From assembly GCA_019323515.1 (NCBI GenBank), contig JAHWHG010000007.1, positions 148,603 through 212,602 on the forward strand: 64,000 bases of DNA, read 5' to 3'. The notes below the pieces were generated by a model. The model saw only the letters and a program-made list of their open reading frames with translations. It had not been told where the DNA came from and ran no database searches. The stretch is from Candidatus Woesearchaeota archaeon (GTDB lineage Archaea > Nanobdellota > Nanobdellia > Woesearchaeales > JAHWHD01). Of this stretch, positions 688 through 35,858 are shown piece by piece. Each line of letters starts with the position of its first letter. Positions within the stretch are counted from its first letter, which is position 1. Position numbers and translations under genes: made by a program.

Positions 688-829
688 AAAAGCTCAAATT
701 AGAAAAAGAAATAAAAACCTTTGTATTATTCAAAAAAATTAATATATTAGTTGCTTGGTTACCCTAAAAATATATACATAACTTTTAAATATGCTATAAC
801 ATTAAAATAATATAAATATAGGTGGAAAA

Positions 830-2137
830 ATGACAAAATACATCTCAATACAAGAAGCAATGAACAAGGGCAAGGGTAAGGTCTCGGTAAGAGGCTGGGT
901 TTATAGGCAAAGAGGCTCTAACAAGATTAAATTCCTAATAATAAGAGACTCATCAAACATAATACAATGCGTGCTTGAACATTCTAAATTTGAAAAGACA
1001 TGGGACGATATTGATAAAATTCAGATAGAGTACTCAATCGAAATAACTGGGGACATAAAGGAAGATAAAAGAGCTCCAACAGGATATGAGATATCAGTAA
1101 CAGATTATAAGATAGTTGGAACATCGGACAAGTTCCCTATTCAAAAAGACCAAAGTAAGGAATTTCTTGCTGACAACAGACATCTTTGGCTTAGGAGCAG
1201 GTACATGACTTCAATCCTAAAGATACGTTCCACAGTATTTGATGCGATTCATGAATACTTCAGAAGCCAAGGTTTCTATGAGTATCACTCCCCAATATTT
1301 CAAGCAGTACAGTGCGAAGGCGGCTCCACCTTATTCAATGTACCATATTTTGGAAAAAAGGATGTGTTTCTTTCACAAACTTGGCAGCTTTATGCTGAAC
1401 CTGCGATATTTGCTCTTGAAAAGATATACACTATTGAGCCAGCGTTCAGGGCAGAAAAATCTGTAACGTCCAGGCACGTGACAGAGCTTTGGATGTGCGA
1501 GATGGAAGTTGCCTGGGCAACATTCGATGATATTATTGACCATGGTGAAGCATTAATTAAACATATTGTTAAGAGCGTTCTTGACAAAAACAAACCAGAA
1601 CTTGAGGTTTTAGGAAGGGACTGGAAAAAGCTTGAACCTACTGTAAAGAAAAAGTTTCCCAGGATAACTTATGATGAAGTGCTTAAACATCTGAAAGAGA
1701 AATTCAAGATGAAAGTTGAATGGGGTAAAGACCTTAGAACTATTGAAGAAGATAAATTAAGTGAACTCTATGATACACCTGTTGCAGTCACAAGATACCC
1801 TAAAGCAGTAAAAGCATTCTACATGAAAGAACCAGAAGACAGCGATAAAAAGAAACCAGTTGTGAATGGTGTTGATTTTATCGCACCTGAGCATTATGGA
1901 GAGATAATAGGCGGCTCTGAGAGGGAATCTGATTTGGAGGATATCAAGAAAAAACTTGTCGAGATGGGAGAAAATCCAAAGGAATACGAATTCTACTTAG
2001 ATACAAGGAGATACGGTTCAGTCCCTCATGGAGGATTTGGCCTAGGTATTGAAAGGATAATATCATGGATCTGCGGCCTCGACACAATCAAGGATGCAAT
2101 CCCATTCCCAAGAACTCCAGAAAGGTATAAACCGTGA
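830..2137 (+). CDS. asnS: Asparaginyl-tRNA synthetase
   Basis: N-terminal OB fold ([16 protein letters not shown]), motif 2 FRAEKS.TSRHVTE, motif 3 [17 protein letters not shown]. Confidence 0.93.
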
Positions 2138-3336
2138 TTATTAAAGGCGATTACCGAAAATCTAAGAAAAAGTACGACATAGAGAGCATCATAAAAACAA
2201 ATAGAGAAAAGAAACGTCTTCAAATCCCAGAACTTCAGGCAACTACAGACTTCTCAAAAAGCCATGAACTCGAGAAAAGAATTAACAAACTCGAAGACTT
2301 GACAAACTTAAATAAACAAGATTTGTACGAGATAATCAAGGAATATATCAGACCTAAACCTAAGAATCTTGACCATTACATAATTACAGCAGATATTAAC
2401 CCATTAATTTATACTAAAATTGATTCAGCACTTTCGCAGCTTGAGAGCGCTTACCTAGACAAGAAAGAAGCCAGGAAATACACCTCGCGGACAGATACAG
2501 AATCAGATGACCCACTGAAACAATACTTAAACGATATTGGAAAAGTCCCACTCCTCACTGCAGAAGAAGAGATACACCTTGGCAAATTAATAGAGAAAGG
2601 GAACACAAAAGCAAAGAACAATTTAATCAGAGGAAACCTTCGCCTTGTTGTATCTGTTGCAAAAAAATATACAAACAGAGGCCTAAGCACACTAGATTTA
2701 ATACAGGAAGGAAACCAAGGATTGATTAGGGCTGCAGAGAAATTTAGATATATGAAAGGTTTTAAGTTTTCGACATACGCAATATGGTGGATTAGACAAG
2801 CAATTACAAGAGCAATAGCAGACCAAGGACGAGTAATAAGAATTCCAGTGCACGCTAATGAAAGGGTAAGTAGGATTAGACAGATTAAGAAAAAGATTAC
2901 CCAAGAGCTTGGCAGGGTTCCGACATTAGAGGAAGTTGCAAATGAAATGAACACAATACCTGAACAGCTGAACGAATTCATGAAGGACATAACAAAACCT
3001 GCATCACTTGACCAAGATATGACAGACAGTGAGATTACTAAAGGAGATTTAATAAAAAACCAGACATCACCAGATCCATTTAATGAAAGTTCCTACAATG
3101 CACTAAGAGAACAGATTGCTGAAGTACTTGAGACACTTTCACCAAGAGAAAAACAGGTAATAAATTATAGATTTGGACTTATTGATGGGATAAAAAGAAC
3201 TCTGGATGCAACAGGACAAAAATTTGGTGTGACAAGAGAAAGGATAAGACAGATTGAAAGCAAAGCTCTTACAAGATTAAGACATCCATCCCGTTCAGGA
3301 AAGTTAAGAGACTTCTATGATAGAGAAGTTGCTTGA
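2134..3336 (+). CDS. Bacterial RpoD-like (group 1/2) sigma-70 factor with an unrecognised N-terminal extension
   Basis: Region 1.2 [21 protein letters not shown]; region 2 [31 protein letters not shown]...[32 protein letters not shown]; region 4 [15 protein letters not shown]...[19 protein letters not shown] overlap with the asnS stop. Confidence 0.95.
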
Positions 3337-3339
3337 AAA

Positions 3340-4278
3340 CTATTTCTTTACATAACTATAAATAAAAGGCAAAGCAATTGTAGCATCACAATGAACTGTA
3401 ACATACTTAGCATCCTTGCTTATCTTACCCCAGGATATCGCCTCACGCAGCGTAGCTCCGCTTAACCCCCCTGTCTCTTCTCTATCCATTGTAATCTGTA
3501 CAGCATAATTATGTTTCTTAGGAGAAAACTGCATAGCTTGTAATATAAAATCCTTAGGCACACCTCCGCCGACGATAAACACACCAGTTCTATCATTACC
3601 CCAAGTGATGTTCATAATCTCTTTCATATCCTCAAATGTATCAACAGTTAACTCTTTACCTTGCGCGATATAACCCCATGTCTGAAAACCTATCGCAGAA
3701 TCACTTATTCCCGGACAAAAAATAGGGACATTCTTTTTAGCACATGCAGCAAGTATAGAATCATCACTATCAATATTATCCCCAATAATCTTCAACAATT
3801 CCCTTACACTATACTTCCTCTTCTCAAGGTTATCATATAATCCATGAAGCCAAGGCTCTAAATCTTCATAGCCCTTATTAGAAAGAAAAACATCATAAAT
3901 CCTATCAATACCTTGCTCAAACAACTTTTCATCATCTATATAATTAGTGCCCTGGATATGCCTATGTCCAAGACTCTCAATCAAATCATGAACCATATTA
4001 GCGCCAGTTGTAACCAATACATCAATCATTCCCTCATTAACCATTTCAATAATTATCCGTTTCATACCAGCTGGCACCATCGCCCCAGCTAAACCAAAAA
4101 ACACTTTACACTCTTTATCAAGAACCATACTCTCAAAAATCTTACAAGCCTTACCAAGCCTGCCAGCACCAAAAACACCGCACTTCTGCATCTCTTCAGC
4201 AAGTTCTCTAACCTTCATATCACTCTTTATACCGATATGCTTGACAGGCTCTCCCCCATTACACTTATGACAATCCAT
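3340..4278 (-). CDS. dys: Deoxyhypusine synthase
   Basis: VTTGANMVHD, PGISDSAIG, GGLSGATLREAISWGK (catalytic Lys), CDATIALP. Confidence 0.95.
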   Translation of the reverse strand: MDCHKCNGGEPVKHIGIKSDMKVRELAEEMQKCGVFGAGRLGKACKIFESMVLDKECKVFFGLAGAMVPAGMKRIIIEMVNEGMIDVLVTTGANMVHDLIESLGHRHIQGTNYIDDEKLFEQGIDRIYDVFLSNKGYEDLEPWLHGLYDNLEKRKYSVRELLKIIGDNIDSDDSILAACAKKNVPIFCPGISDSAIGFQTWGYIAQGKELTVDTFEDMKEIMNITWGNDRTGVFIVGGGVPKDFILQAMQFSPKKHNYAVQITMDREETGGLSGATLREAISWGKISKDAKYVTVHCDATIALPFIYSYVKK

Positions 4279-4334: not shown

Positions 4335-5087
4335 ATGATAGTTGATGTACACGCACATATGGACATGCTCAAAGGAGATTTAAGCCCAATAATCAAGAGA
4401 GCTAAAAAAGCCGGACTTAATACCATAATCTCAAACTCTGTTAACCTTGAATCCTGTAAAAAAAACATTGAAATATCAAAACAGTATCCTATTGTCAAAC
4501 CAGCCCTAGCAATATATCCAAGAGATGCAGTTGAAAATCCAGATGAAATTGAAACAACCTTTGAATTCATCAAAAGAAACGTAAAAAAAGCTATAGCAAT
4601 AGGTGAAGCTGGGCTTGATTATCATCTTCCCTTTTTGACAGAAATAAAAGCAGTAAAGATCCAAAAACAGGTTTTCCAAGAATTGATAAAGTTAGCAGAA
4701 AAATCAAAACTACCATTAATAGTCCACTCGAGAAAGGCTGAAAAAGAAGTGGTTGAGATACTAGAAACATCAAAACTCAAACACATAATCTTGCATTGCT
4801 ATGGTGGAAAATTAAAACTAGCTAAAAGGATTACAGAAAACGGGTGGAACTTCTCAATACCTGCTTCGATTGTAAGAAGCGAACACTTCCAAAAAATAGT
4901 AGAACAAACACCACTACCCCAACTGTTATCAGAGACAGATGCACCGTTCCAATCTCCTTTCCATAACAAGCAGAATGAACCTGCTTTCATAATAGAGGGA
5001 ATAAAAAAGATTGCAGAGATAAAATCAATTACATTAGAAGATTGCAAGAATAACCTTTTTATGAATTTTCAGAGGATATTCAAATGA
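4335..5087 (+). CDS. tatD: TatD-family DNase / amidohydrolase
   Basis: VDVHAH, AIGEAGLDY, VHSR, LHCY, LSETDAP. Confidence 0.93.
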   Translation: MIVDVHAHMDMLKGDLSPIIKRAKKAGLNTIISNSVNLESCKKNIEISKQYPIVKPALAIYPRDAVENPDEIETTFEFIKRNVKKAIAIGEAGLDYHLPFLTEIKAVKIQKQVFQELIKLAEKSKLPLIVHSRKAEKEVVEILETSKLKHIILHCYGGKLKLAKRITENGWNFSIPASIVRSEHFQKIVEQTPLPQLLSETDAPFQSPFHNKQNEPAFIIEGIKKIAEIKSITLEDCKNNLFMNFQRIFK

Positions 5088-6281: not shown

Positions 6282-6485
6282 ATGAGCACAATACCGGCTG
6301 CTGCAATGGAAAGAATTCTTAGAAGAGCTGGAGCTAAAAGAGTAAGCGAACCTGCTAAAAAAGCATTTGCAGAGATCCTTGAAGATTACGCTCTAAAGAT
6401 AGGTGAAAAAGCTCTTAATATAGCCAAAAATTGCGGCAGGAAAACCATTCTTGACACCGATATCAAGATGGTTAAACTAAAATGA
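6282..6485 (+). CDS. Archaeal histone (HMf-like fold)
   Basis: IPAAAMERILRRAGAKRVS...GRKTI..DI histone-fold signature; SD GAGGTGAT upstream. Confidence 0.93.
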   Translation: MSTIPAAAMERILRRAGAKRVSEPAKKAFAEILEDYALKIGEKALNIAKNCGRKTILDTDIKMVKLK

Positions 6486-6703
6486 AAATAACAATTGACA
6501 CTAAACAAGACAGTAAAGATGATATAAAACGCCTTATCAACATGCTGAGTCATCTTGTAGATAATACAGCATCAAATACAGAGTTTAATACTCCACAAGA
6601 ACAAGGTTTCTTTAATATGTTTGGCTCAGTTGAAGAGACCAAAAAAGGACCTGATGAAGATAAATCTGACACAAAAGAGATTCCAAGGATAATGGAATAC
6701 TAA
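6482..6703 (+). CDS. Small hypothetical protein with an acidic C-terminus
   Basis: 73-aa ORF with ATGA overlap to the histone; no family recognised. Confidence 0.7.
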   Translation: MKITIDTKQDSKDDIKRLINMLSHLVDNTASNTEFNTPQEQGFFNMFGSVEETKKGPDEDKSDTKEIPRIMEY

Positions 6704-19001: not shown

Positions 19002-19319
19002 ATGCAATTTTGTCCAAGATGCGGTGCTTTACTCTTACCTAAGAAAGAAGGCAACAAAAAAATGGTTGCCTGCTCATGCGGTTATAAAAGCAAAGACATT
19101 GAAGAGTCAAAGATTTCTGAGAAGGTAATTAACAAACAAAAAGATGTGGAAGTTGTGGATAAAGAAGTAGAGGTCATGCCCTTAACAGAAGCAGAATGCC
19201 CAAAATGCGGCCATAACAGGGCAAGATTCTGGACACAGCAGACAAGAGCAGGAGACGAAGCTGAAACTAAGTTCTTCAAATGCGAGAAATGCAAGCATAT
19301 CTGGAGAGAATACAGATAA
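19002..19319 (+). CDS. tfs: Transcription factor S (TFS/RpoM)
   Basis: FCPRCGALL..CSCG and CPKCG...QTRAGDE....FFKCEKC; acidic DE hairpin intact. Confidence 0.95.
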   Translation: MQFCPRCGALLLPKKEGNKKMVACSCGYKSKDIEESKISEKVINKQKDVEVVDKEVEVMPLTEAECPKCGHNRARFWTQQTRAGDEAETKFFKCEKCKHIWREYR

Positions 19320-20108: not shown

Positions 20109-20232
20109 ACCAACTAGATATAAAAATCTATCTGAAATCAGTATACTAAAGGATATAAAATTATATAAATTTCAACAAAGTGATTTTTTCTTAATTTAGC
20201 TTATAAAAGATAAAGCAAGAGAGGTGCTTCTA

Positions 20233-21759
20233 ATGGTCGAATTCACAAAAGAGGAAAAAGAAGGAATAATGCTAACATTCTTCACAAACCTTGACAAACC
20301 AACTTATTTTATACAAAACCTGCCTGAAGAGTTCGATGCTACATTAAAGGCATATTATAGTAGGTCACCTAATTCATTAAGAGACAATTTCTGGGAAGTT
20401 ATAACAGATAAAGAACTTGGCATAGCTGACAGGTTAAGAAAAGAACTTGATGCAGGCTACTCACCTTACATAGCTGCAATGCTTGCAAAGGAAGAGATGA
20501 TGTCCATGAAGACTGTAAAAAGGTTTCACAGTAAATGGACAGTCAAATACGGTCACGGTTCAGTAGCTGAACAGGCAAAGGGATCTGCTTGTCAAGAGGA
20601 TTTATCTATAATACTTACAAAAGTAATAGAAGACGACAGGCTTAACTCCCATGTTGAGATATCCACACGTTACCAACCTTTTTCAAGAGACAACATTGCA
20701 ATTCCTAAATGCATTGAGAATGATGCTGAAATGAGAAAGGTCTACCTGAATTCAGTAAACTTATTATTTGATACCTATGAAAAGGCTACAGAAGAGGTAA
20801 GGAAATGGGTAGAAGAAAAGTTTCCAGATCTTTCAGAATCACTAAAGAAAAACAAGACCTTTGATTTAGTAAGATGCCTACTTCCTGCATGTTCAAAGAC
20901 CAGCGTTGGTTCCTCAATAAACGCAAGATGCCTTGAAAAGATGATTTCAAAGATGGGCTCACATCCTCTAGAAGAAGCACAGGATAGGGCAAAAGCACTG
21001 AAAGACGAAGCTCTTAAGGTTCTTCCTACATTGGTCAAGTATGCAGAACCAAGCAAGTACAGGAAGGTAAACAGAGAATTCTTAGAGACAATTATTGAGA
21101 CTACTAATCTTTTCAAAGATTATGATTATGACAAGGTAAAATTAATCCATTCAGAAGACGAAAGTGAAGCAATCGATAAAATAGTATCATTCTTGTTATT
21201 TGACCGAAATCGCCAAGGATATTCGTACAGTCAGATTTTTAATAGAGTAAAAGAAATGCCACATGACATAAAAGAAGGGATAATAACAAATTTTAACACA
21301 GGCAGAAAAAGACATGACCAACTACCTAGAGCATTTGAGATGGTAGATTATACCTGGGAATGCATAATAGACTTCGGAGCATACCGTGACCTGCAAAGAC
21401 AAAGGATGTGCACCCAGGCAACACCAGGGTTAACAAACCATCTTGGGTTTACATATCCAAATATACTAAAGAACCTTGGCCTGCAAGACGATATCGAAAA
21501 CGCATTAAACCAAGCATGTTTAGCCTACGACATTATATCAAAGGAACACAAATACGAAGCACAATATGTCCTTCCACTAGCTACAAACGTAAGGATGCTT
21601 TTCAAGATGAATCTCAGAGAACTTGACGAGGTAGCTCCTCTAAGGACATCATCAAGGGCGCACGAATCATATAAAAACATAATCCTGAAAGTAGTTGACC
21701 AGATAAGAGAAGCACACCCATTCTTAGGCTCTCTGCTAAGGACAGGTGATATAGAATGA
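20233..21759 (+). CDS. thyX: FAD-dependent thymidylate synthase, double-domain form
   Basis: YGHGSVAEQ, EISTRY, DLVRCLLP in domain 1; DFGAYRDLQRQR, AQYVLPL, NLREL..LR in domain 2. SD GAGGTG precedes ATG 20233. Confidence 0.88.
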   Translation: MVEFTKEEKEGIMLTFFTNLDKPTYFIQNLPEEFDATLKAYYSRSPNSLRDNFWEVITDKELGIADRLRKELDAGYSPYIAAMLAKEEMMSMKTVKRFHSKWTVKYGHGSVAEQAKGSACQEDLSIILTKVIEDDRLNSHVEISTRYQPFSRDNIAIPKCIENDAEMRKVYLNSVNLLFDTYEKATEEVRKWVEEKFPDLSESLKKNKTFDLVRCLLPACSKTSVGSSINARCLEKMISKMGSHPLEEAQDRAKALKDEALKVLPTLVKYAEPSKYRKVNREFLETIIETTNLFKDYDYDKVKLIHSEDESEAIDKIVSFLLFDRNRQGYSYSQIFNRVKEMPHDIKEGIITNFNTGRKRHDQLPRAFEMVDYTWECIIDFGAYRDLQRQRMCTQATPGLTNHLGFTYPNILKNLGLQDDIENALNQACLAYDIISKEHKYEAQYVLPLATNVRMLFKMNLRELDEVAPLRTSSRAHESYKNIILKVVDQIREAHPFLGSLLRTGDIE

Positions 21760-28968: not shown

Positions 28969-29454
28969 ATGAAATGTCCTTACTGCTTATCAAATGAAAC
29001 CAAGGTTGTAGACAAAAGACCTACAAGTGACTTTGAAGTCACAAGAAGAAGAAGGGAATGTCTAAAGTGCGAGCGCCGTTTTACTACGTATGAAAGGATT
29101 GAGATGGCTGACCTTGTTGTTGTCAAAAAAGACAGCAGAAGAGAGGCTTTTGATAGGGACAAACTAAAGCAAGGCCTGACAAAAGCACTGCAAAAAAGAC
29201 CAATAAGTGCTGAACAGGTAGATAAAATAATCAATGAAATTGAGATGAAACTCAAAGGCAAGGAAAATCTAGAGGTTGAAAGCAGATATATTGGGAAGCT
29301 TATCATGAACAGGCTCAAAAGGATAGACCCTGTAGCCTATATAAGATTTGCTTCAGTGTATAAATCATTTGATGACCTAGACGCATTTGCTGAAGAAATA
29401 AAAAAGATAAAACAAACGAAAAAAAGTGGTGATAATGATGGAGATTCTAGTTAA
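28969..29454 (+). CDS. nrdR: Transcriptional repressor NrdR
   Basis: MKCPYC...RRRRECLKCERRFTTYE, ATP cone VVKKDSRREAFDRDKL, VAYIRFASVY. Confidence 0.97.
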   Translation: MKCPYCLSNETKVVDKRPTSDFEVTRRRRECLKCERRFTTYERIEMADLVVVKKDSRREAFDRDKLKQGLTKALQKRPISAEQVDKIINEIEMKLKGKENLEVESRYIGKLIMNRLKRIDPVAYIRFASVYKSFDDLDAFAEEIKKIKQTKKSGDNDGDSS

Positions 29455-31741
29455 AAAAGCAGATGAAAGAACTGAATCATTCTCAAAACAAAAACTGAGT
29501 TACGCTTTAGAAAGAACAGGGATTCCAAACAAACATATCTCTGAAGTAGTTGACAAGATTGCTAAACAGGCGTATAACCTTATTCCAACCTCTGAGATTA
29601 GGAAATGGGTCATTGAAGAACTTGATAAGATTGATGAGCAATACAGCTATGGATTCAAATATAAAAGAAAAAACGTCTGGGTCGTTGGAGGAGAACCTCC
29701 ATTCAACCATGTGTTTCAACCATTTATCAAGCAAAGAATTGTTGAATCACTTATTAAAGAGACAAATATGGAGGAAAAACTAGCAAGAGAAATCTCAGAC
29801 GAAGTGGAACATCTACTTATTGAGAATAAAGTTGAGCATATAACAGGGCCACTCATAAGGGAACTTGTAAATTATATCCTTACAAAAAGAAAACTCTATG
29901 ACTATAAGAGAGATTATTCGAGACTCGGCATGCCTGTCTATGATATACATAGGACAATCAACCAAAACTTACATGAGAATGCAAATTTAGGGTATCATGC
30001 TGAAGCAATACATAAACTGATTGCTGACAATGTATCTAAGAAATACGCACTCACAAAAATACTTCCTCCTGAACTTGCTTACACACACCTCAAAGGAGAA
30101 TTATACATTCATGACCTAAGCTATTTCTCTACAAGACCATTTTGCTTTGCATCTGACCTTAGATTCTTCTTCAAAAACGGGCTTAAAGTAGATGGCTTTG
30201 GCAACCAAACCTCAACTGCAGGCCCAGCAAAACGTGCAGATGTTGCTTTAAACCATGCTGCGAAGATTGTCGGAGCTGGCCAAACTAACTGTGCAGGTGG
30301 TCAAGGCCTTGACTTCTTTAATATATGGATGTCACCTTTTTTAAAAGGAAAATCATACAATGAGATGTATCAACTAGCACAGCAATTCATTTATGAAATG
30401 AATATGATGCTTGTAAGCAGAGGCGGTCAAGCAGTCTTTTCTTCAATATCATTAGAATTCGACCCTCCCAAATGGATTTCCGAATTACCAGCAGTGCTTC
30501 CTGGAGGAAAGGTTAGTGAAAAAGAAACATATGCAGATTACACTGAGGAAGCCCTGACATTCACAGAAGCACTAACTGATGTATTCCTAGGAGGAGACTA
30601 CAATGGAAAGATGTTTTCATGGCCAAAACCTGAATTCAAGGTTAGGAAACCTTTGCTAAAGGGCAAGCATGAAGAACTCTTCATGAAGGTGCATCAACTA
30701 GCTTCAAAATTTGGCAGCCCTTATTTCCTTAACCTAAACGCACCATACATGCCGGACATATGCCAAAGTCAATGTTGTAGATTTTTTCTCACGCCAACTG
30801 CTGACGAATGGATAGACATTGAAAGAGGTTCTACAAGATCAAGCTGCATACAGTACGTTTCATTGAACCTTCCAAGAGTTGCTTACGAAGCAAAAGATGA
30901 GACTGCTGCATTGGAACTTATTCAAAAAAGGATGGAGCAATCAAAAGAAATATTCAAGATTAAAAATGATATAATAAGGCAAAGACTTGATCAAAAGATT
31001 CTTCCTTTCCTTGCGCAGGATTGCTACGGAGAATACCTTTATCCAATTAATCACTGCTTACACAATTTTGGTTTTGTAGGATTAAACGAAATGGTAAAAT
31101 CATTAACTGGAGAAGAACTTCATGAAAGCGAAAGTGCATGGAAGTTCGGATTAAAAGTAATCAAAAATATGTCTGATTATTCTAAACTCCTTAACGAAAA
31201 CCCTGATGAGGGATACGGATTACGATACGGAGTTGTACAAACACCTGGAGAAAGTGCACCCCATAGGCTCGCAAAGATTGATATGCGTGATTTCAAAGAC
31301 AAGGCAGTTGTACAGGGCAATGTCAAAGATGGTTCTGTTTATTACATGAACTCGTCACATCCAAACTACTCAGCTCCAATCAATCTTTTCAAGAGATTAC
31401 AGATTGATGCATCATTCCACCCTTTGCTCGATGGCGGCGCAATATCACATCTATGGTTAGGAGAATCTAACCCTGATCCAAGTGCACTTCTCAAGTTGAC
31501 AAAGAAGATATGTGAAAAAACACTCACTGCATATTATGCCTACACAAAGGACATAAGTTATTGCATTAAATGCCATAAGACTATGGGAGGCATACAAGAT
31601 ACATGCCCTAACTGCGGTTCTAACGAAGTGGAATGCTACAGTAGAGTGACTGGCTACTATCAAAGGGTATCAGGCTGGAACAAAGGAAAGAAACAAGAAT
31701 TCCTTGATAGATATAGATACGGAAATAACATGTTAAAATAA
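29435..31741 (+). CDS. nrdD: Class III anaerobic ribonucleoside-triphosphate reductase, copy 1 (two ATP cones)
   Basis: ENAN, IHD, RPFC, GGQG, SRGGQ, QSQCCRF, SLNLPR, TPGES, Zn ribbon CIKC..CPNC, glycyl-radical loop SRVTGYY; SD GGTGAT before ATG 29435/29438. Confidence 0.95.
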   Translation: MMEILVKKADERTESFSKQKLSYALERTGIPNKHISEVVDKIAKQAYNLIPTSEIRKWVIEELDKIDEQYSYGFKYKRKNVWVVGGEPPFNHVFQPFIKQRIVESLIKETNMEEKLAREISDEVEHLLIENKVEHITGPLIRELVNYILTKRKLYDYKRDYSRLGMPVYDIHRTINQNLHENANLGYHAEAIHKLIADNVSKKYALTKILPPELAYTHLKGELYIHDLSYFSTRPFCFASDLRFFFKNGLKVDGFGNQTSTAGPAKRADVALNHAAKIVGAGQTNCAGGQGLDFFNIWMSPFLKGKSYNEMYQLAQQFIYEMNMMLVSRGGQAVFSSISLEFDPPKWISELPAVLPGGKVSEKETYADYTEEALTFTEALTDVFLGGDYNGKMFSWPKPEFKVRKPLLKGKHEELFMKVHQLASKFGSPYFLNLNAPYMPDICQSQCCRFFLTPTADEWIDIERGSTRSSCIQYVSLNLPRVAYEAKDETAALELIQKRMEQSKEIFKIKNDIIRQRLDQKILPFLAQDCYGEYLYPINHCLHNFGFVGLNEMVKSLTGEELHESESAWKFGLKVIKNMSDYSKLLNENPDEGYGLRYGVVQTPGESAPHRLAKIDMRDFKDKAVVQGNVKDGSVYYMNSSHPNYSAPINLFKRLQIDASFHPLLDGGAISHLWLGESNPDPSALLKLTKKICEKTLTAYYAYTKDISYCIKCHKTMGGIQDTCPNCGSNEVECYSRVTGYYQRVSGWNKGKKQEFLDRYRYGNNMLK

Positions 31742-31779
31742 GACGTTAAACAAACAATAAAAAGATACAAGGATAAAAG

Positions 31780-33819
31780 ATGGAGAAGAAGATAATTACT
31801 TCAAATGGAGAGACAGGTTCTTTATCCAAGGAAAAAATAAAACAAGCTTTACTTAAAGAGACTTCAATAACAAAAGAAAATGCTGAACAGATTGCAGAAA
31901 AAAGTTTTAAGGAATTAGAGGGTATAAACGGAATCCTCAAGACAAGTTTGATTAGAGAAATAGTTTGTATGAAACTAAGAGAGCAAGGGCTTGAAAAAGA
32001 ACATTCAGAGTTTGTACGTCTTGGCCTGCCAGTGCACGAGGTTAAGAAAATAATGTTTGAATATGACAAGAACAATGCAAACACAACATATAACCCTCAA
32101 ACAATCCAATTTAATTTAGCACAGCCTATTGCAAGACAATATGCACTATTCCACTTACTTCCAAAAAAGATAGCAGATAGCCATATAAATGGCGAGATTT
32201 ACATCCATGACTTCGACTTCTTTGCAACAAGACCGTTCTGCTTTTCACATGATATAAGGTTCTTCCTAAAGAACGGACTTAAGACAGACGGTTCAGGGAA
32301 CCACACAGCATCTTCAGGACCTGCTAAAAGTCTCTCAGTAGCCCTTAGACACGCAGCAAGGACAATGATAATAGCCTCAAACTACTTTTCAGGAGGCCAA
32401 GGTTTTGATAGCCTTAACCTTTACTTAGCTCCCTACGCGCGTGGACTTAGCAACCATGCTATTGAACACGCAGTTCAAGGCTTTATCTTCCAGCTAGCAA
32501 CATTAAACGTTGTCAAAGGCGGCCAACTTCCCTTTACATCAGCATCACTCGAACTCAACATGCCAGGTTACCTCAAAGACGTCCCAGTAGTGCTTCCTGG
32601 AGGTAAAGTCAGTGAAAATGAGAACTACGAAAATTATTTAGATGAAGCAAGAAGAATTGCAGACGTGTTCACAAAACTTCTTATGCGTGGAGACCACTTT
32701 GGTAGACCATTCCACTTCCCTAAACCCGAATATAAGATAAGAAAGGATACTTTAAAGGATAAAGAAGTAGAGCCTCTACTCTTAGATATTCATAAACTTG
32801 TAGCTAAGTTCGGAAGTCCATACTTCCTAAACATGGCAGCTCCTTATATGCCAGATGCTCTCCAAAGCCAATGCTGCCGCTACTTCCTTGCACCTGACCA
32901 GGATTTCTGGGAAGAGATAAAGGAAGGTACTGTTAGGAGCGGCAGTATCCAGACTGTTACATTAAACCTTCCAAATATAGCCTATAACGTAAAAGATGAA
33001 TCCGAGATTTACCCACTAATCCAGGAAAGGATTAACCTCATGAGGGGCATATTTGATATCAAAAGAGAATGCATCAAAAAGGTAATGGACTCAGGAGCTG
33101 CACCTTTCCTTACAATGGATTGTAATGGAAAACCTTACTTCAAGATTAACGAATCAACAAACTCTGTCGGGTTTATAGGATTAAACGAGATGGTGAAGTC
33201 ATTAATTGGAGAAGAACTTCACGAAAGCGACAATGGATGGAAGTTAGGCTTAAAGATAATCAAGTACATGTCAGATTTAGTTATGGAAATGCAGGAAAAA
33301 ACCGGACAACGATGGGGTATGGTGCAAACACCAGCAGAATCCGTAAGCTGGAAGTTTGCTGAACTTGATTCAAAGAACTACAAAGATAAAGCGATTGTAC
33401 AAGGGAATAAAGAAACTGGCGATATTTTCTATACAAATAGTAGTCAGCCAAGGTACTCAGCTGACATAGACCTTTTCAAAAGACTCAAGATTGATAGTTC
33501 ATTCCATCCACTTGTAAAAGGTGGAGTGATATCACATGTATTCCTCGGAGAAAAGAACCCTGACCCAGAAGCCCTATTAAATTTGACAAAAAAGATTTGC
33601 TCTAAAACTCTAACAGCCTATTATGCTTATACAAAAGATATCACTTACTGTAACAGTTGTAGTAATACGTTTGGTGGCATACACCAAAAATGTCCTAGCT
33701 GTGGAGAAGAAGACAAGATTGAATGCTTTTCAAGAATAACTGGCTATTATACAAATGTAAAAAGCTGGAATAAAGGTAAGTTCAAGGAATTCCTAGAAAG
33801 AAAAAGGTATGGTCTATGA
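31780..33819 (+). CDS. nrdD: Class III ribonucleotide reductase, copy 2
   Basis: One ATP cone; IHD, RPFC, GGQG, QSQCCRY, TPAES, CNSC..CPSC, SRITGYY. Confidence 0.93.
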   Translation: MEKKIITSNGETGSLSKEKIKQALLKETSITKENAEQIAEKSFKELEGINGILKTSLIREIVCMKLREQGLEKEHSEFVRLGLPVHEVKKIMFEYDKNNANTTYNPQTIQFNLAQPIARQYALFHLLPKKIADSHINGEIYIHDFDFFATRPFCFSHDIRFFLKNGLKTDGSGNHTASSGPAKSLSVALRHAARTMIIASNYFSGGQGFDSLNLYLAPYARGLSNHAIEHAVQGFIFQLATLNVVKGGQLPFTSASLELNMPGYLKDVPVVLPGGKVSENENYENYLDEARRIADVFTKLLMRGDHFGRPFHFPKPEYKIRKDTLKDKEVEPLLLDIHKLVAKFGSPYFLNMAAPYMPDALQSQCCRYFLAPDQDFWEEIKEGTVRSGSIQTVTLNLPNIAYNVKDESEIYPLIQERINLMRGIFDIKRECIKKVMDSGAAPFLTMDCNGKPYFKINESTNSVGFIGLNEMVKSLIGEELHESDNGWKLGLKIIKYMSDLVMEMQEKTGQRWGMVQTPAESVSWKFAELDSKNYKDKAIVQGNKETGDIFYTNSSQPRYSADIDLFKRLKIDSSFHPLVKGGVISHVFLGEKNPDPEALLNLTKKICSKTLTAYYAYTKDITYCNSCSNTFGGIHQKCPSCGEEDKIECFSRITGYYTNVKSWNKGKFKEFLERKRYGL

Positions 33820-34952
33820 AGATTGATGTCCCTTTTAAAGACCTGGAAGAAAGTAGCCCTGATAAGATAGTAAAGTCTCTTCTAAAAGAGACATCTATAG
33901 AAGAAGACAAAGCAAAGATTATTGCAGAACAAGCATTCCAGGAGTTAAAGAAACTAGAGAGTATAACACCTAATTTAGTAAGAGAAATTGTATGTACTCA
34001 ACTCTTGAAATCCGGCCTAAGGAAATCACACAAAGAATATTCAAGGTTAGGTATGCCAGTATATGACATTAAAAATACTATCTTGCAGTATGATAAAGAA
34101 AATGCAAATGTAAACTATAATCCGCAATTTATGCACAAACAATTTGGAGATTCAATCTCTGAACAGTACACCTTACTATACCTTCTGCCTGCATCAGCAA
34201 GCAGGGCACACCTTAATGGAGAGATATACATACATGATAGGGCGTTCTTCCCAACAAGACCTTTCTGTTTTTCGCACGATATGAGATTCTTTCTTAAAAA
34301 CGGGGTAAAACCAGACGGGATAGGCATTTATGCAGGAGTTTCTGGACCTGCAAAAAGTCTACAAGTTGCAATGCAGCATGCTGCAAGAGTCTTACTTAAT
34401 GCTCAGACATACTTTTCAGGTGGCCAAGGCTTCGACAGTCTTAATCTTTACCTTGCACCTTATGCAAGGGGACTTAATTATTACCAAGTTAAACAGGCAG
34501 TTGAAGCATTTGTATACACTTTAGACCAGATATTTATACGCGATGGTGAGACAGCATTCACATCAGCATCACTCGAACTTAACTGCCCAAGATACTTAAA
34601 AGACGTGCCGGTTGTCCTTCCAGGTGGAAGAGTAACTGAAAATGAGAATTATGAGAACTACATTGAAGAAGCAAGAACAATCGCAAGAGCTTTTACAGAA
34701 GTAATGATGAATGGTGATCATAATGGCAAACCGTTTCATTTCCCTAAACCCGAGTATAAGATAAGAAAGGATACTTTAAAGGATAAAGAAGTAGAACCTC
34801 TACTCCTGGATGTACACAAACTTGTAGCTAAGTTCGGAAGTCCATACTTCCTAAACATGGCAGCTCCTTATATGCCAGACGCTCTCCAAAGTCAATGCTG
34901 TCGCTATTTCCTTGCACCTGACCAAGACTTCTGGGAAGACATCAAAGAAGGA
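32716..34952 (+). repeat. ~210-bp near-identical direct repeat shared by nrdD2 (about 32716-32928) and nrdD3 (about 34740-34952)
   Basis: Exact runs of 41 bp (32731-32771 = 34755-34795) and 62 bp (32794-32855 = 34818-34879), counted by eye. Confidence 0.85.
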
Positions 34953-35858
34953 ACCGTAAGAAGTGGAAGTATACAAGTTATAACAATTAACCTACCAAAC
35001 ATAGCATATAATGCAAAAGACGAAAGCCAAGTCTTTGACATTATTGACCAGCGCCTTGACACCGCTGAAAAGATATTCAATGTGAAAAGAGATGTAATAA
35101 AAAAAATATTAGATAACAATGCAGCACCTTTCCTAACAATGGAATGTAACAAGAAACCATATTTTAAGATTAAATCATCAACCAATTCTGTAGGATTTAT
35201 AGGGCTTAATGAGATGGTTAAATCACTGACAGGAGAAGAACTTCACGAAAGCGACAGCGCTTGGAAGCTCGGACTGAAGATTATAAAAGAGATGGCTGAC
35301 AAGGTCAAAGAAAAGCAAGAAAAAACAGAACAAAGATGGGGCATGGTACAGACACCTGCTGAAGGTTGTTCATATAAGCTGGCGGAGATTGACACTAAAA
35401 GGTATAAAGACAAGGCGATCGTACAAGGAGATACTAAATCCGGCACAATATATTATACGAATTCATGCCAAGTTAATTATTCCGCAAATTTACCATTATT
35501 TAATAGGATAAAGATTGACAGCTCATTCCACCCTCTTGTTAAGGGTGGTGTAATTAACCACATATTCCTTGGGGAAAAGAATCCAGACCCAGAAGCTCTT
35601 CTAAACCTAACAAACAAGATATGCAAAAACACTCTTACAGCATACTTTGCATACACCAAAGACATAACCTCTTGTAATAAATGCAAACAAACTTTTGGCA
35701 ACATACTTGAAAAATGTCCAAGTTGCGGTGCAGTGGGTGATGATTTACAATGGTACTCGAGGGTAACAGGCTATTATACGCCAGTAAAATCATGGAACAA
35801 GGGCAAAGCTACTGAATTTATTAACAGGAAAAGATATAGTGTAGGTGATAGACAATGA
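33816..35858 (+). CDS. nrdD: Class III ribonucleotide reductase, copy 3
   Basis: Degenerate ATP cone; ENAN, IHD, RPFC, GGQG, QSQCCRY, TPAEG, CNKC..CPSC, SRVTGYY; ATGA overlap with copy 2. Confidence 0.93.
   Translation: MKIDVPFKDLEESSPDKIVKSLLKETSIEEDKAKIIAEQAFQELKKLESITPNLVREIVCTQLLKSGLRKSHKEYSRLGMPVYDIKNTILQYDKENANVNYNPQFMHKQFGDSISEQYTLLYLLPASASRAHLNGEIYIHDRAFFPTRPFCFSHDMRFFLKNGVKPDGIGIYAGVSGPAKSLQVAMQHAARVLLNAQTYFSGGQGFDSLNLYLAPYARGLNYYQVKQAVEAFVYTLDQIFIRDGETAFTSASLELNCPRYLKDVPVVLPGGRVTENENYENYIEEARTIARAFTEVMMNGDHNGKPFHFPKPEYKIRKDTLKDKEVEPLLLDVHKLVAKFGSPYFLNMAAPYMPDALQSQCCRYFLAPDQDFWEDIKEGTVRSGSIQVITINLPNIAYNAKDESQVFDIIDQRLDTAEKIFNVKRDVIKKILDNNAAPFLTMECNKKPYFKIKSSTNSVGFIGLNEMVKSLTGEELHESDSAWKLGLKIIKEMADKVKEKQEKTEQRWGMVQTPAEGCSYKLAEIDTKRYKDKAIVQGDTKSGTIYYTNSCQVNYSANLPLFNRIKIDSSFHPLVKGGVINHIFLGEKNPDPEALLNLTNKICKNTLTAYFAYTKDITSCNKCKQTFGNILEKCPSCGAVGDDLQWYSRVTGYYTPVKSWNKGKATEFINRKRYSVGDRQ

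Follow-up and report, generated by a model that had tools for sequence, protein, structure and literature searches.

A stretch of 64,000 nucleotides from a Candidatus Woesearchaeota archaeon (contig JAHWHG010000007.1, positions 148,603 to 212,602; the whole stretch is referred to as the window) contains a gene for a protein of the sigma-70 family, and the gene is confirmed to be genuine and intact and to look native to the archaeal chromosome that carries it. Sigma factors define the initiation of transcription in bacteria, and archaea use TBP, TFB and TFE. The role that we tentatively favour for the product, at a probability of about 0.35, is that of an accessory, non-essential, intracellular regulator that would bind DNA in a sequence-specific manner. 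The maintenance of sigma genes in archaea that have no bacterial polymerase is a standing puzzle, published in 2013 and 2021, and the window gene offers a clean test case, being present in single copy, free of fused domains and matched by a close relative in which the same site is empty. Should the protein be a plain DNA-binding regulator, it would be an example of domain co-option; proof that it partners with the archaeal clamp or with a bacterial polymerase would count as a major result.

The open reading frame (ORF) between 2134 and 3336 on the forward strand encodes 400 amino acids in an intact frame, with a GTG start two codons past an in-frame stop (Table 1). Regions 1.2, 2, 3 and 4 are each matched by a Pfam model above its gathering score (for region 2 PF04542 scores 76.4 bits against a cut-off of 24, and for region 4 PF04545 scores 60.5 bits against 24.1), and membership of the product in the sigma-70 superfamily is confirmed at the level of Pfam domains. 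BLASTP against E. coli RpoD gave 50% identity over residues 159-396 (regions 2-4). In an AlphaFold2 (AF2) model the predicted local distance difference test score (pLDDT) exceeds 90 for sigma-2, sigma-3 and sigma-4, and the best PDB matches of the model are SigA/sigmaA chains from solved holoenzymes. An earlier reading of the letters, made without database searches (the sequence-only reading), had listed the same sigma-70 regions and quoted motifs from them, all of which are present. It had also called the protein a primary-type sigma factor, a label that is overstated: region 1.1 is absent, and although RpoD models rank first in NCBIfam at about 360 bits, the scores stay under every equivalog cut-off of 555-572 bits (NF004208, 362 vs 555 bits; NF006666, 360.6 vs 572; TIGR02393, the model of the RpoD C-terminal part, 308 vs 354). 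The gene is the sole sigma gene of its genome, a 76%-complete bin, and encodes no fused domains.

Conservation was scored against 132 alignment columns in which 120 bacterial RpoDs show 95% conservation or more, called RpoD-invariant here. The window protein keeps 112 of these positions (85%), whereas most archaeal copies keep 43-70%. Retention reaches 55/59 in regions 2.1-2.4 and 31/33 in regions 4.1-4.2 (36/38 with the C-terminus included), and the losses cluster in regions 3.0 and 3.2, which account for 12 of the 20 substituted positions (Fisher p = 2e-6). The claim of the sequence-only reading that both DNA-contact and core-contact residues are retained was supported by the alignment and by a residue check. 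In E. coli numbering the equivalents of the core and -10 contacts Q406, E407, N409, F427, T429, Y430, W433, W434, R436, Q437, T440 and R441 are identical, as are those of H455 and E458 in region 3 and of the -35 contacts R584, E585, R586, R588 and Q589. The clamp-contact residues of region 2.2 and region 4 are likewise retained in 69-90% of the 29 archaeal copies examined. Aligned against the counterpart SLETPIG.EEDSHLGDFI, the 'sigma finger' of region 3.2 is the part where divergence is strong. E. coli RpoS keeps 89 of the 132 positions, with 3/11 in region 3.0 and 6/12 in region 3.2, and in its DNA- and clamp-binding modules the window protein is the more RpoD-like of the two. Retention on this scale suggests that the gene has been under selection. 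Decay of regions 3.0/3.2 was considered as a mark of lost polymerase contact and was rejected, since RpoS, a working group-2 sigma factor, shows the same pattern and is equally weak there. The distribution of losses would rather point to release from a housekeeping role than to the end of polymerase contact.

The N-terminus is the clearest departure from RpoD. No Pfam model matches it, and PF03979, the model of region 1.1, is absent from residues 1-132 even at E<=10. No homologue was found among 5.8 billion proteins searched, and BLAST against the N-termini of other archaeal sigma proteins returned no similarity. The sequence-only reading had described an N-terminus of about 135 residues resembling nothing recognisable; the lack of a recognisable relative stands, and the length has to be corrected to residues 1-125. 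The region has a pLDDT of 37-61 with no confident fold and carries a net charge of +4. The segment of region 1.1 in bacterial relatives lies at -16 to -21, and the N-termini of the other archaeal copies range from -13 to +43. The maximum KD19 (Kyte-Doolittle, 19 residues) hydrophobicity of the window N-terminus is 0.71, and neither a signal peptide nor a membrane (hydrophobic) segment was found in any of the 29 archaeal copies. In bacteria the acidic region 1.1 keeps free sigma off DNA, and Dombroski and colleagues reportedly found in 1993 that N-terminally truncated sigma-70 binds promoter DNA by itself. A separate observation concerns genome G016, where a 454-aa sigma protein (locus L005/L028, contig C67, 4693-6057, reverse strand) has a lysine-rich, histone-tail-like N-terminus (KKMKQKIKKIVPKKKALIKK...) with a net charge of +43 over its first 120 residues, in the place of the bacterial acidic region 1.1.

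The surroundings of the gene are archaeal and of housekeeping character, and the sequence-only reading had rightly pointed to a histone and TFS among them. Pfam identified asparaginyl-tRNA synthetase (AsnRS), deoxyhypusine synthase (DHS), TatD, a radical-SAM protein, an archaeal histone and RtcB in the window, TFS lies at 19002-19319, and AsnRS shows 72-83% identity to proteins bearing the name Woesearchaeota or Nanoarchaeota. Both junctions of the sigma gene are as that reading had given them: the GTG start overlaps the TGA of asnS (ccGTGAtt), and the sigma TGA lies 3 nt from the dys stop codon. A Shine-Dalgarno-like AAGGT is located 8 nt 5′ of the start, and no terminator-like site was found between asnS and the sigma gene. 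Because of this overlap, the AAGGT motif and the missing terminator, asnS and the sigma gene are predicted to form a two-gene unit and are probably co-transcribed. The putative promoter and ribosome-binding site of the unit (Table 1) were read from the sequence together with the genome-wide enrichment of hexamers. The composition is host-like, as had been proposed: the GC content is 0.364, the mean over genes being 0.372, and among the 830 genes of the genome the sigma gene ranks at the 45th percentile in codon-usage distance. Since GC and codon usage are typical of the genome and the nearest sequence is only 57-60% identical, the gene appears to have resided there for long. The genome comprises 1.124 Mb in 20 contigs and is 76% complete, the contig with the sigma gene measures 232 kb, and the archaeal basal machinery is represented by TBP, two TFB genes and TFS.

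The proteins nearest to the window sigma anywhere are bacterial RpoDs of 57-60% identity, named Riflebacteria or Wallbacteria; two further near matches are surrounded by bacterial genes, the contig of one bearing the label UBA6191, and the best archaeal copies are 54-56% identical. In a maximum-likelihood tree the window copy is sister to an archaeal copy of the same family, from genome G001 (support 95/82), and the two join the Riflebacteria/Wallbacteria/UBA6191 RpoD clade (86/85), while the copies of genome G041 group with other RpoDs, among them one under the name Muiribacteriaceae (97/92). Archaeal homologues, to which the sequence-only reading had looked for a single clade with conserved synteny, do exist: sigma homologues occur in 27 of the 61 genomes of the order, frequently as multiple or tandem copies, and Sigma70_r2 is found in 130 of the 301 genomes of the phylum (43% of the high-quality genomes) and in 117 of 225 genera. 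They are not monophyletic, however, as constraining 12 archaeal copies to one clade costs 49.6 log-likelihood units (approximately unbiased (AU) test, p=0.013). This suggests at least two acquisitions of bacterial rpoD, a conclusion to be read with caution because of the long branches involved. Measured from their common node, the branch of the window copy amounts to 1.41 changes per site against 0.28-0.47 in its bacterial sisters, a rate 3-5 times faster; synonymous sites are saturated, since the nearest homologue is only 42-60% identical. Four tandem sigma paralogues of 684, 371, 297 and 287 aa stand in G041 (locus L022, contig C3, 7361-12496, reverse strand) and keep 130, 125, 84 and 57 of the 132 positions, respectively. 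The 684-aa protein, sister to the Muiribacteriaceae RpoD, has kept region 1.1, which follows an additional N-terminal part of about 330 aa; the array is preceded by ORFs of 287, 765 and 1062 aa without assignment.

Conserved synteny was not borne out either. In the sister genus, genome G002 of the same family has convergent asnS and dys genes 83% identical to those of the window and separated by just 11 nt, without a sigma gene between them, and in three more relatives with AsnRS of about 78% identity other genes lie downstream of asnS. Loose echoes of the arrangement are seen in genome G029, where a 298-aa sigma gene overlaps the start of the tatD orthologue, and in G041, where the four-gene array abuts a dys-like gene. 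Elsewhere in G002 (locus L026, contig C53, 5518-11562) sigma paralogues, three in number and 578, 312 and 398 aa long, are interspersed with orthologues of the genes C5:48658-51344 and C5:65279-66655 of the genome from which the window comes (G000), where no sigma gene is present at those places. The set of sigma genes thus differs markedly between members of one family.

As to a polymerase partner, the 76%-complete bin has no match to PF00562, PF00623 or TIGR02013, that is, no large RNA polymerase (RNAP) subunit of either archaeal or bacterial type, despite its TBP, TFB and TFS; the contig with the rpo operon presumably escaped binning. Since no large subunit of any kind is present, the absence of bacterial rpoB/rpoC from the bin is uninformative. 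Among 13 sigma-bearing relatives, a single split archaeal B''/B' rpoB pair was found in 12 and no match in the thirteenth, and none of the 13, which include closed single-contig and 100% complete genomes, had an rpoB above the bacterial cut-off.

In the reading that we favour, an rpoD line would have been acquired from a Riflebacteria/Wallbacteria-like donor and domesticated during long residence. Transcription of the sigma gene, the second in the unit, would start at the archaeal asnS promoter, and the product of the gene would be a soluble cytoplasmic protein, a location suggested by the lack of a hydrophobic segment in all 29 archaeal copies. It could bind DNA without polymerase through its intact sigma-2 (-10-type) and sigma-4 (-35-type helix-turn-helix) modules, and loss of the acidic, auto-inhibitory region 1.1 would permit such binding by the free protein. 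Because region 1.1 is lost, a canonical initiation factor is not expected, and accessory status is suggested by the patchy occurrence (27/61 in the order, 130/301 in the phylum) together with the empty identical site in the sister genus. A DNA-binding regulator fits the loss of region 1.1 and the cytoplasmic, operonic setting; it leaves the retention of clamp contacts and the missing target sites unexplained.

Several observations weigh against such a regulator. Region 1.2 and the core-contact residues Q406, E407 and N409 are kept with no obvious need in a protein that works free of polymerase, and free sigma binds duplex DNA poorly. Target sites were sought as TTGACA-N16-18-TATAAT across the 1.12-Mb genome and compared with Markov-3 simulations, the sigma-70 consensus being used because the promoter-reading residues equal those of sigma-70. 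At 0, 1 and 2 mismatches 6, 73 and 1022 sites were observed against 2.5, 71 and 975 simulated; of the 73 that have no more than one mismatch, just 4 lie in intergenic DNA. A local scan gave 14 sites vs 12.6, the level of chance. Intergenic TTGACA is at expectation (37 vs 38.9) and intergenic TATAAT is depleted (260 vs 329 expected, z = -3.8), a depletion that may be an artefact of the model. A sigma-70 regulon is not visible genome-wide, although a handful of sites would escape the composite and hexamer scans. The promoter architecture of the genome is archaeal: the most enriched intergenic hexamers are TTTATA, TTTAAA and TATATA (TATA box) and GAGGTG (Shine-Dalgarno).

Two other explanations give the kept polymerase contacts a use. 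The protein might be a cross-domain effector that works with the RNA polymerase of a bacterial partner or prey and redirects or jams its sigma-70 transcription, which we consider rather unlikely. A bacterial polymerase as the target alone explains both the kept contact residues and the absence of sigma-70 promoters and of a bacterial polymerase on the archaeal side, and it would thereby resolve the paradox posed by this genome and by relatives devoid of bacterial rpoB. The likely capture of rpoD on two or more occasions, from distinct bacterial lineages (AU p=0.013), is in line with it, as is the persistence in G041 of a near-pristine RpoD (130/132, region 1.1 kept) beside diverged tandem copies; genes of interaction typically show the fast evolution, the expansion in tandem and the patchy occurrence seen here. 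No delivery route is apparent, however, as the 29 copies are devoid of signal peptides and membrane segments, no secretion genes are found nearby, and the gene is probably part of one housekeeping unit with asnS; divergence of the sigma finger and of region 3.0 is a further objection. We know of no DPANN archaeon that delivers proteins into bacteria, and the known DPANN hosts are archaea, which also counts against an effector. The extended version, in which Woesearchaeota would repeatedly capture the rpoD of their neighbours and deliver the product by a non-Sec route to act on bacterial polymerase, with the variable N-termini as delivery or targeting parts, is unlikely. The same has to be said of an accessory initiation or melting factor of archaeal RNAP, whose sigma-2 would dock on the Rpo1N clamp coiled-coil and either direct initiation at a few promoters or modulate it there. 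That coiled-coil is the site used by TFE and Spt5, and TFE-alpha aids melting. Region 2.2 clamp contacts and region 4, kept in the window copy and in 69-90% of the 29 archaeal copies, would serve such a factor; the sole polymerase of sigma-bearing relatives, a closed genome included, is archaeal; the profile of constraint resembles that of RpoS; and the protein is probably cytoplasmic and apparently co-expressed with a housekeeping gene. On the other side there is no excess of -35/-10 sites, and copies that are often lost and do not form one clade are a poor fit for a component of the basal machinery. Nor does sigma substitute for TFE: replacement of TFE-alpha was rejected on 300 high-quality genomes, where 7 of the 17 genomes lacking TFE-alpha carry sigma vs 122 of the 283 others (Fisher p=1), and a weak association within the order, where sigma is present in 5 of the 6 genomes that have no strong match to TFE-alpha (p=0.08), vanished in that larger set.

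As a neutral passenger the gene would be a horizontally acquired rpoD without function, heading for decay, and the patchy distribution, the site empty in the sister genus, the 3-5x faster rate, the missing regulon signal and the degenerate state of many relatives' copies (43-66% of invariant positions kept) could all be taken that way. We find this quite improbable, given a 400-aa frame intact in a streamlined 1.1-Mb genome, fully ameliorated codon usage that implies a long stay without decay, retention of 112/132 positions with non-random losses in regions 3.0/3.2, and a family present in 43% of the high-quality genomes of the phylum. A part in a mobile element or in anti-virus defence, for instance as an MzaA-like sigma of the MZA system, is highly improbable. 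MzaA models do match (316 bits in NCBIfam, 221 bits in PADLOC) and sigma genes shift position among related genomes, but the match is limited to the generic sigma part, far under the cut-off of 800 bits, and the gene exactly fills the asnS-dys gap with no integrase, repeat or tRNA boundaries. Membership in such a system was rejected after PADLOC and Pfam detected no mzaB-E or defence genes among the neighbours here, in G041 and in genome G030. An assembly chimera or bacterial contamination is hardly credible even in a bin that is only 76% complete: the junctions fall exactly at gene boundaries (the GTGA overlap and the 3-nt gap), the 232-kb contig has flanks 83% identical to those of G002, the codon usage is host-typical, homologues lie inside archaeal contigs of dozens of relatives, closed genomes included, and mis-binning has been ruled out for the family (Castelle et al. 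2021, PMC8204110).

The window sigma is not new in kind and belongs to an already published family of DPANN sigma-70 proteins. Rinke and colleagues are said to have listed 'complete sigma factors in Archaea' in 2013. Castelle et al. 2021 (PMC8204110) described sigma-70 genes (fam00359) as 'particularly prevalent in Woesearchaeota', found no anti-sigma factors and called the mechanism unclear; it is from their family description that the window gene is provisionally assigned to fam00359. No functional study of DPANN archaeal sigma-70 genes was found in the literature. With that family the window copy shares a sigma-70 protein on an unmistakably archaeal Woesearchaeota contig and a genome with TBP and TFB in which neither an anti-sigma factor nor a bacterial polymerase is evident. 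It differs in being a singleton and the sole sigma of its genome, with no relative above 60% identity, in its greater likeness to RpoD, in its orphan N-terminus and in occupying a site where the sister genus has no sigma gene.

With bacterial group 1 RpoD/SigA the window protein has in common regions 1.2, 2.1-2.4, 3.0-3.2 and 4.1-4.2, the C-terminal RHPSRS tail and identical residues at the checked -10, extended -10, -35 and clamp-helix contacts, the nearest of these RpoDs (Riflebacteria, Wallbacteria, UBA6191-type) being 57-60% identical across the C-terminal 270 aa. It is set apart from them by the missing acidic region 1.1, the diverged regions 3.0/3.2 and the scores under cut-off, as well as by the lack of a cognate core polymerase in its relatives and of sigma-70 promoters in its genome. 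The group 2 factor RpoS of E. coli is similar in its primary-like regions 1.2-4.2 with relaxed regions 3.0/3.2, and both proteins are dispensable and accessory; RpoS, however, has an acidic N-terminus, a co-encoded bacterial core and a defined regulon, whereas the window sigma has no evident partner or regulon and keeps more RpoD-invariant positions (112 vs 89 of 132). MzaA (NF041931) of the MZA anti-phage system likewise combines an N-terminal region of non-sigma type with a C-terminal half that resembles RpoD, but the window sigma scores 316 bits against the 800-bit cut-off and has neither the MzaA N-terminal domain nor mzaBCDE neighbours.

Table 1 Features of the sigma-70 gene, its product and its neighbours (nucleotide positions refer to the window)
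Feature	Residues	Positions	Strand	RpoD-invariant positions kept	Remarks
Sigma-70 family gene	1-400	2134..3336	+	112/132	400 aa; GTG start overlapping asnS stop; Pfam, NCBIfam, BLASTP, AF2
Orphan N-terminal region replacing acidic region 1.1	1-125	2134..2508	+		Net charge +4; predicted helical at low confidence; no hydrophobic segment
Region 1.2	126-157	2509..2604	+		PF00140 Sigma70_r1_2, 56.8 bits, E 2e-15
Region 2: core-binding 2.2 and -10 melting/recognition 2.3-2.4	164-233	2623..2832	+		PF04542, E 1.5e-21
Region 2.1				12/12
Region 2.2				14/16
Region 2.3				13/13
Region 2.4				16/18
Region 3	243-316	2860..3081	+		PF04539, E 1.4e-13
Region 3.0				6/11
Region 3.2 'sigma finger', strongly diverged	290-309	3001..3060	+	5/12	Alignment; pLDDT below 50
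Region 4 with -35 helix-turn-helix	331-384	3124..3285	+		PF04545, E 1.1e-16
Region 4.1				11/11
Region 4.2				20/22
C-terminus				5/5
Putative archaeal promoter and ribosome-binding site of asnS-sigma unit		783..825	+		TTTTAAATAT TATA-like box 783-792; GGTGG Shine-Dalgarno 821-825
asnS (asparaginyl-tRNA synthetase), 5′ neighbour		830..2137	+		Stop overlaps sigma start; no terminator-like site between
dys (deoxyhypusine synthase), convergent		3340..4278	-		Stop 3 nt from sigma stop
tatD-family hydrolase		4335..5087	+		Pfam; orthologue in G029 directly 3′ of sigma homologue

Three further features of the window deserve mention, all on the forward strand. An ORF at 6482-6703 encodes an acidic protein of 73 aa and overlaps the end of the archaeal histone gene (6282-6485); its homologues are found near tatD in G029 and in genome G003. 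Three tandem full-length paralogues of the anaerobic ribonucleotide reductase NrdD (PF13597), of 771, 679 and 680 aa, occupy 29426-35858. A 511-aa ThyX-like protein is encoded at 20224-21759; it contains two Thy1 (PF02511) stretches, is about twice the usual length and may represent a duplicated or fused ThyX.

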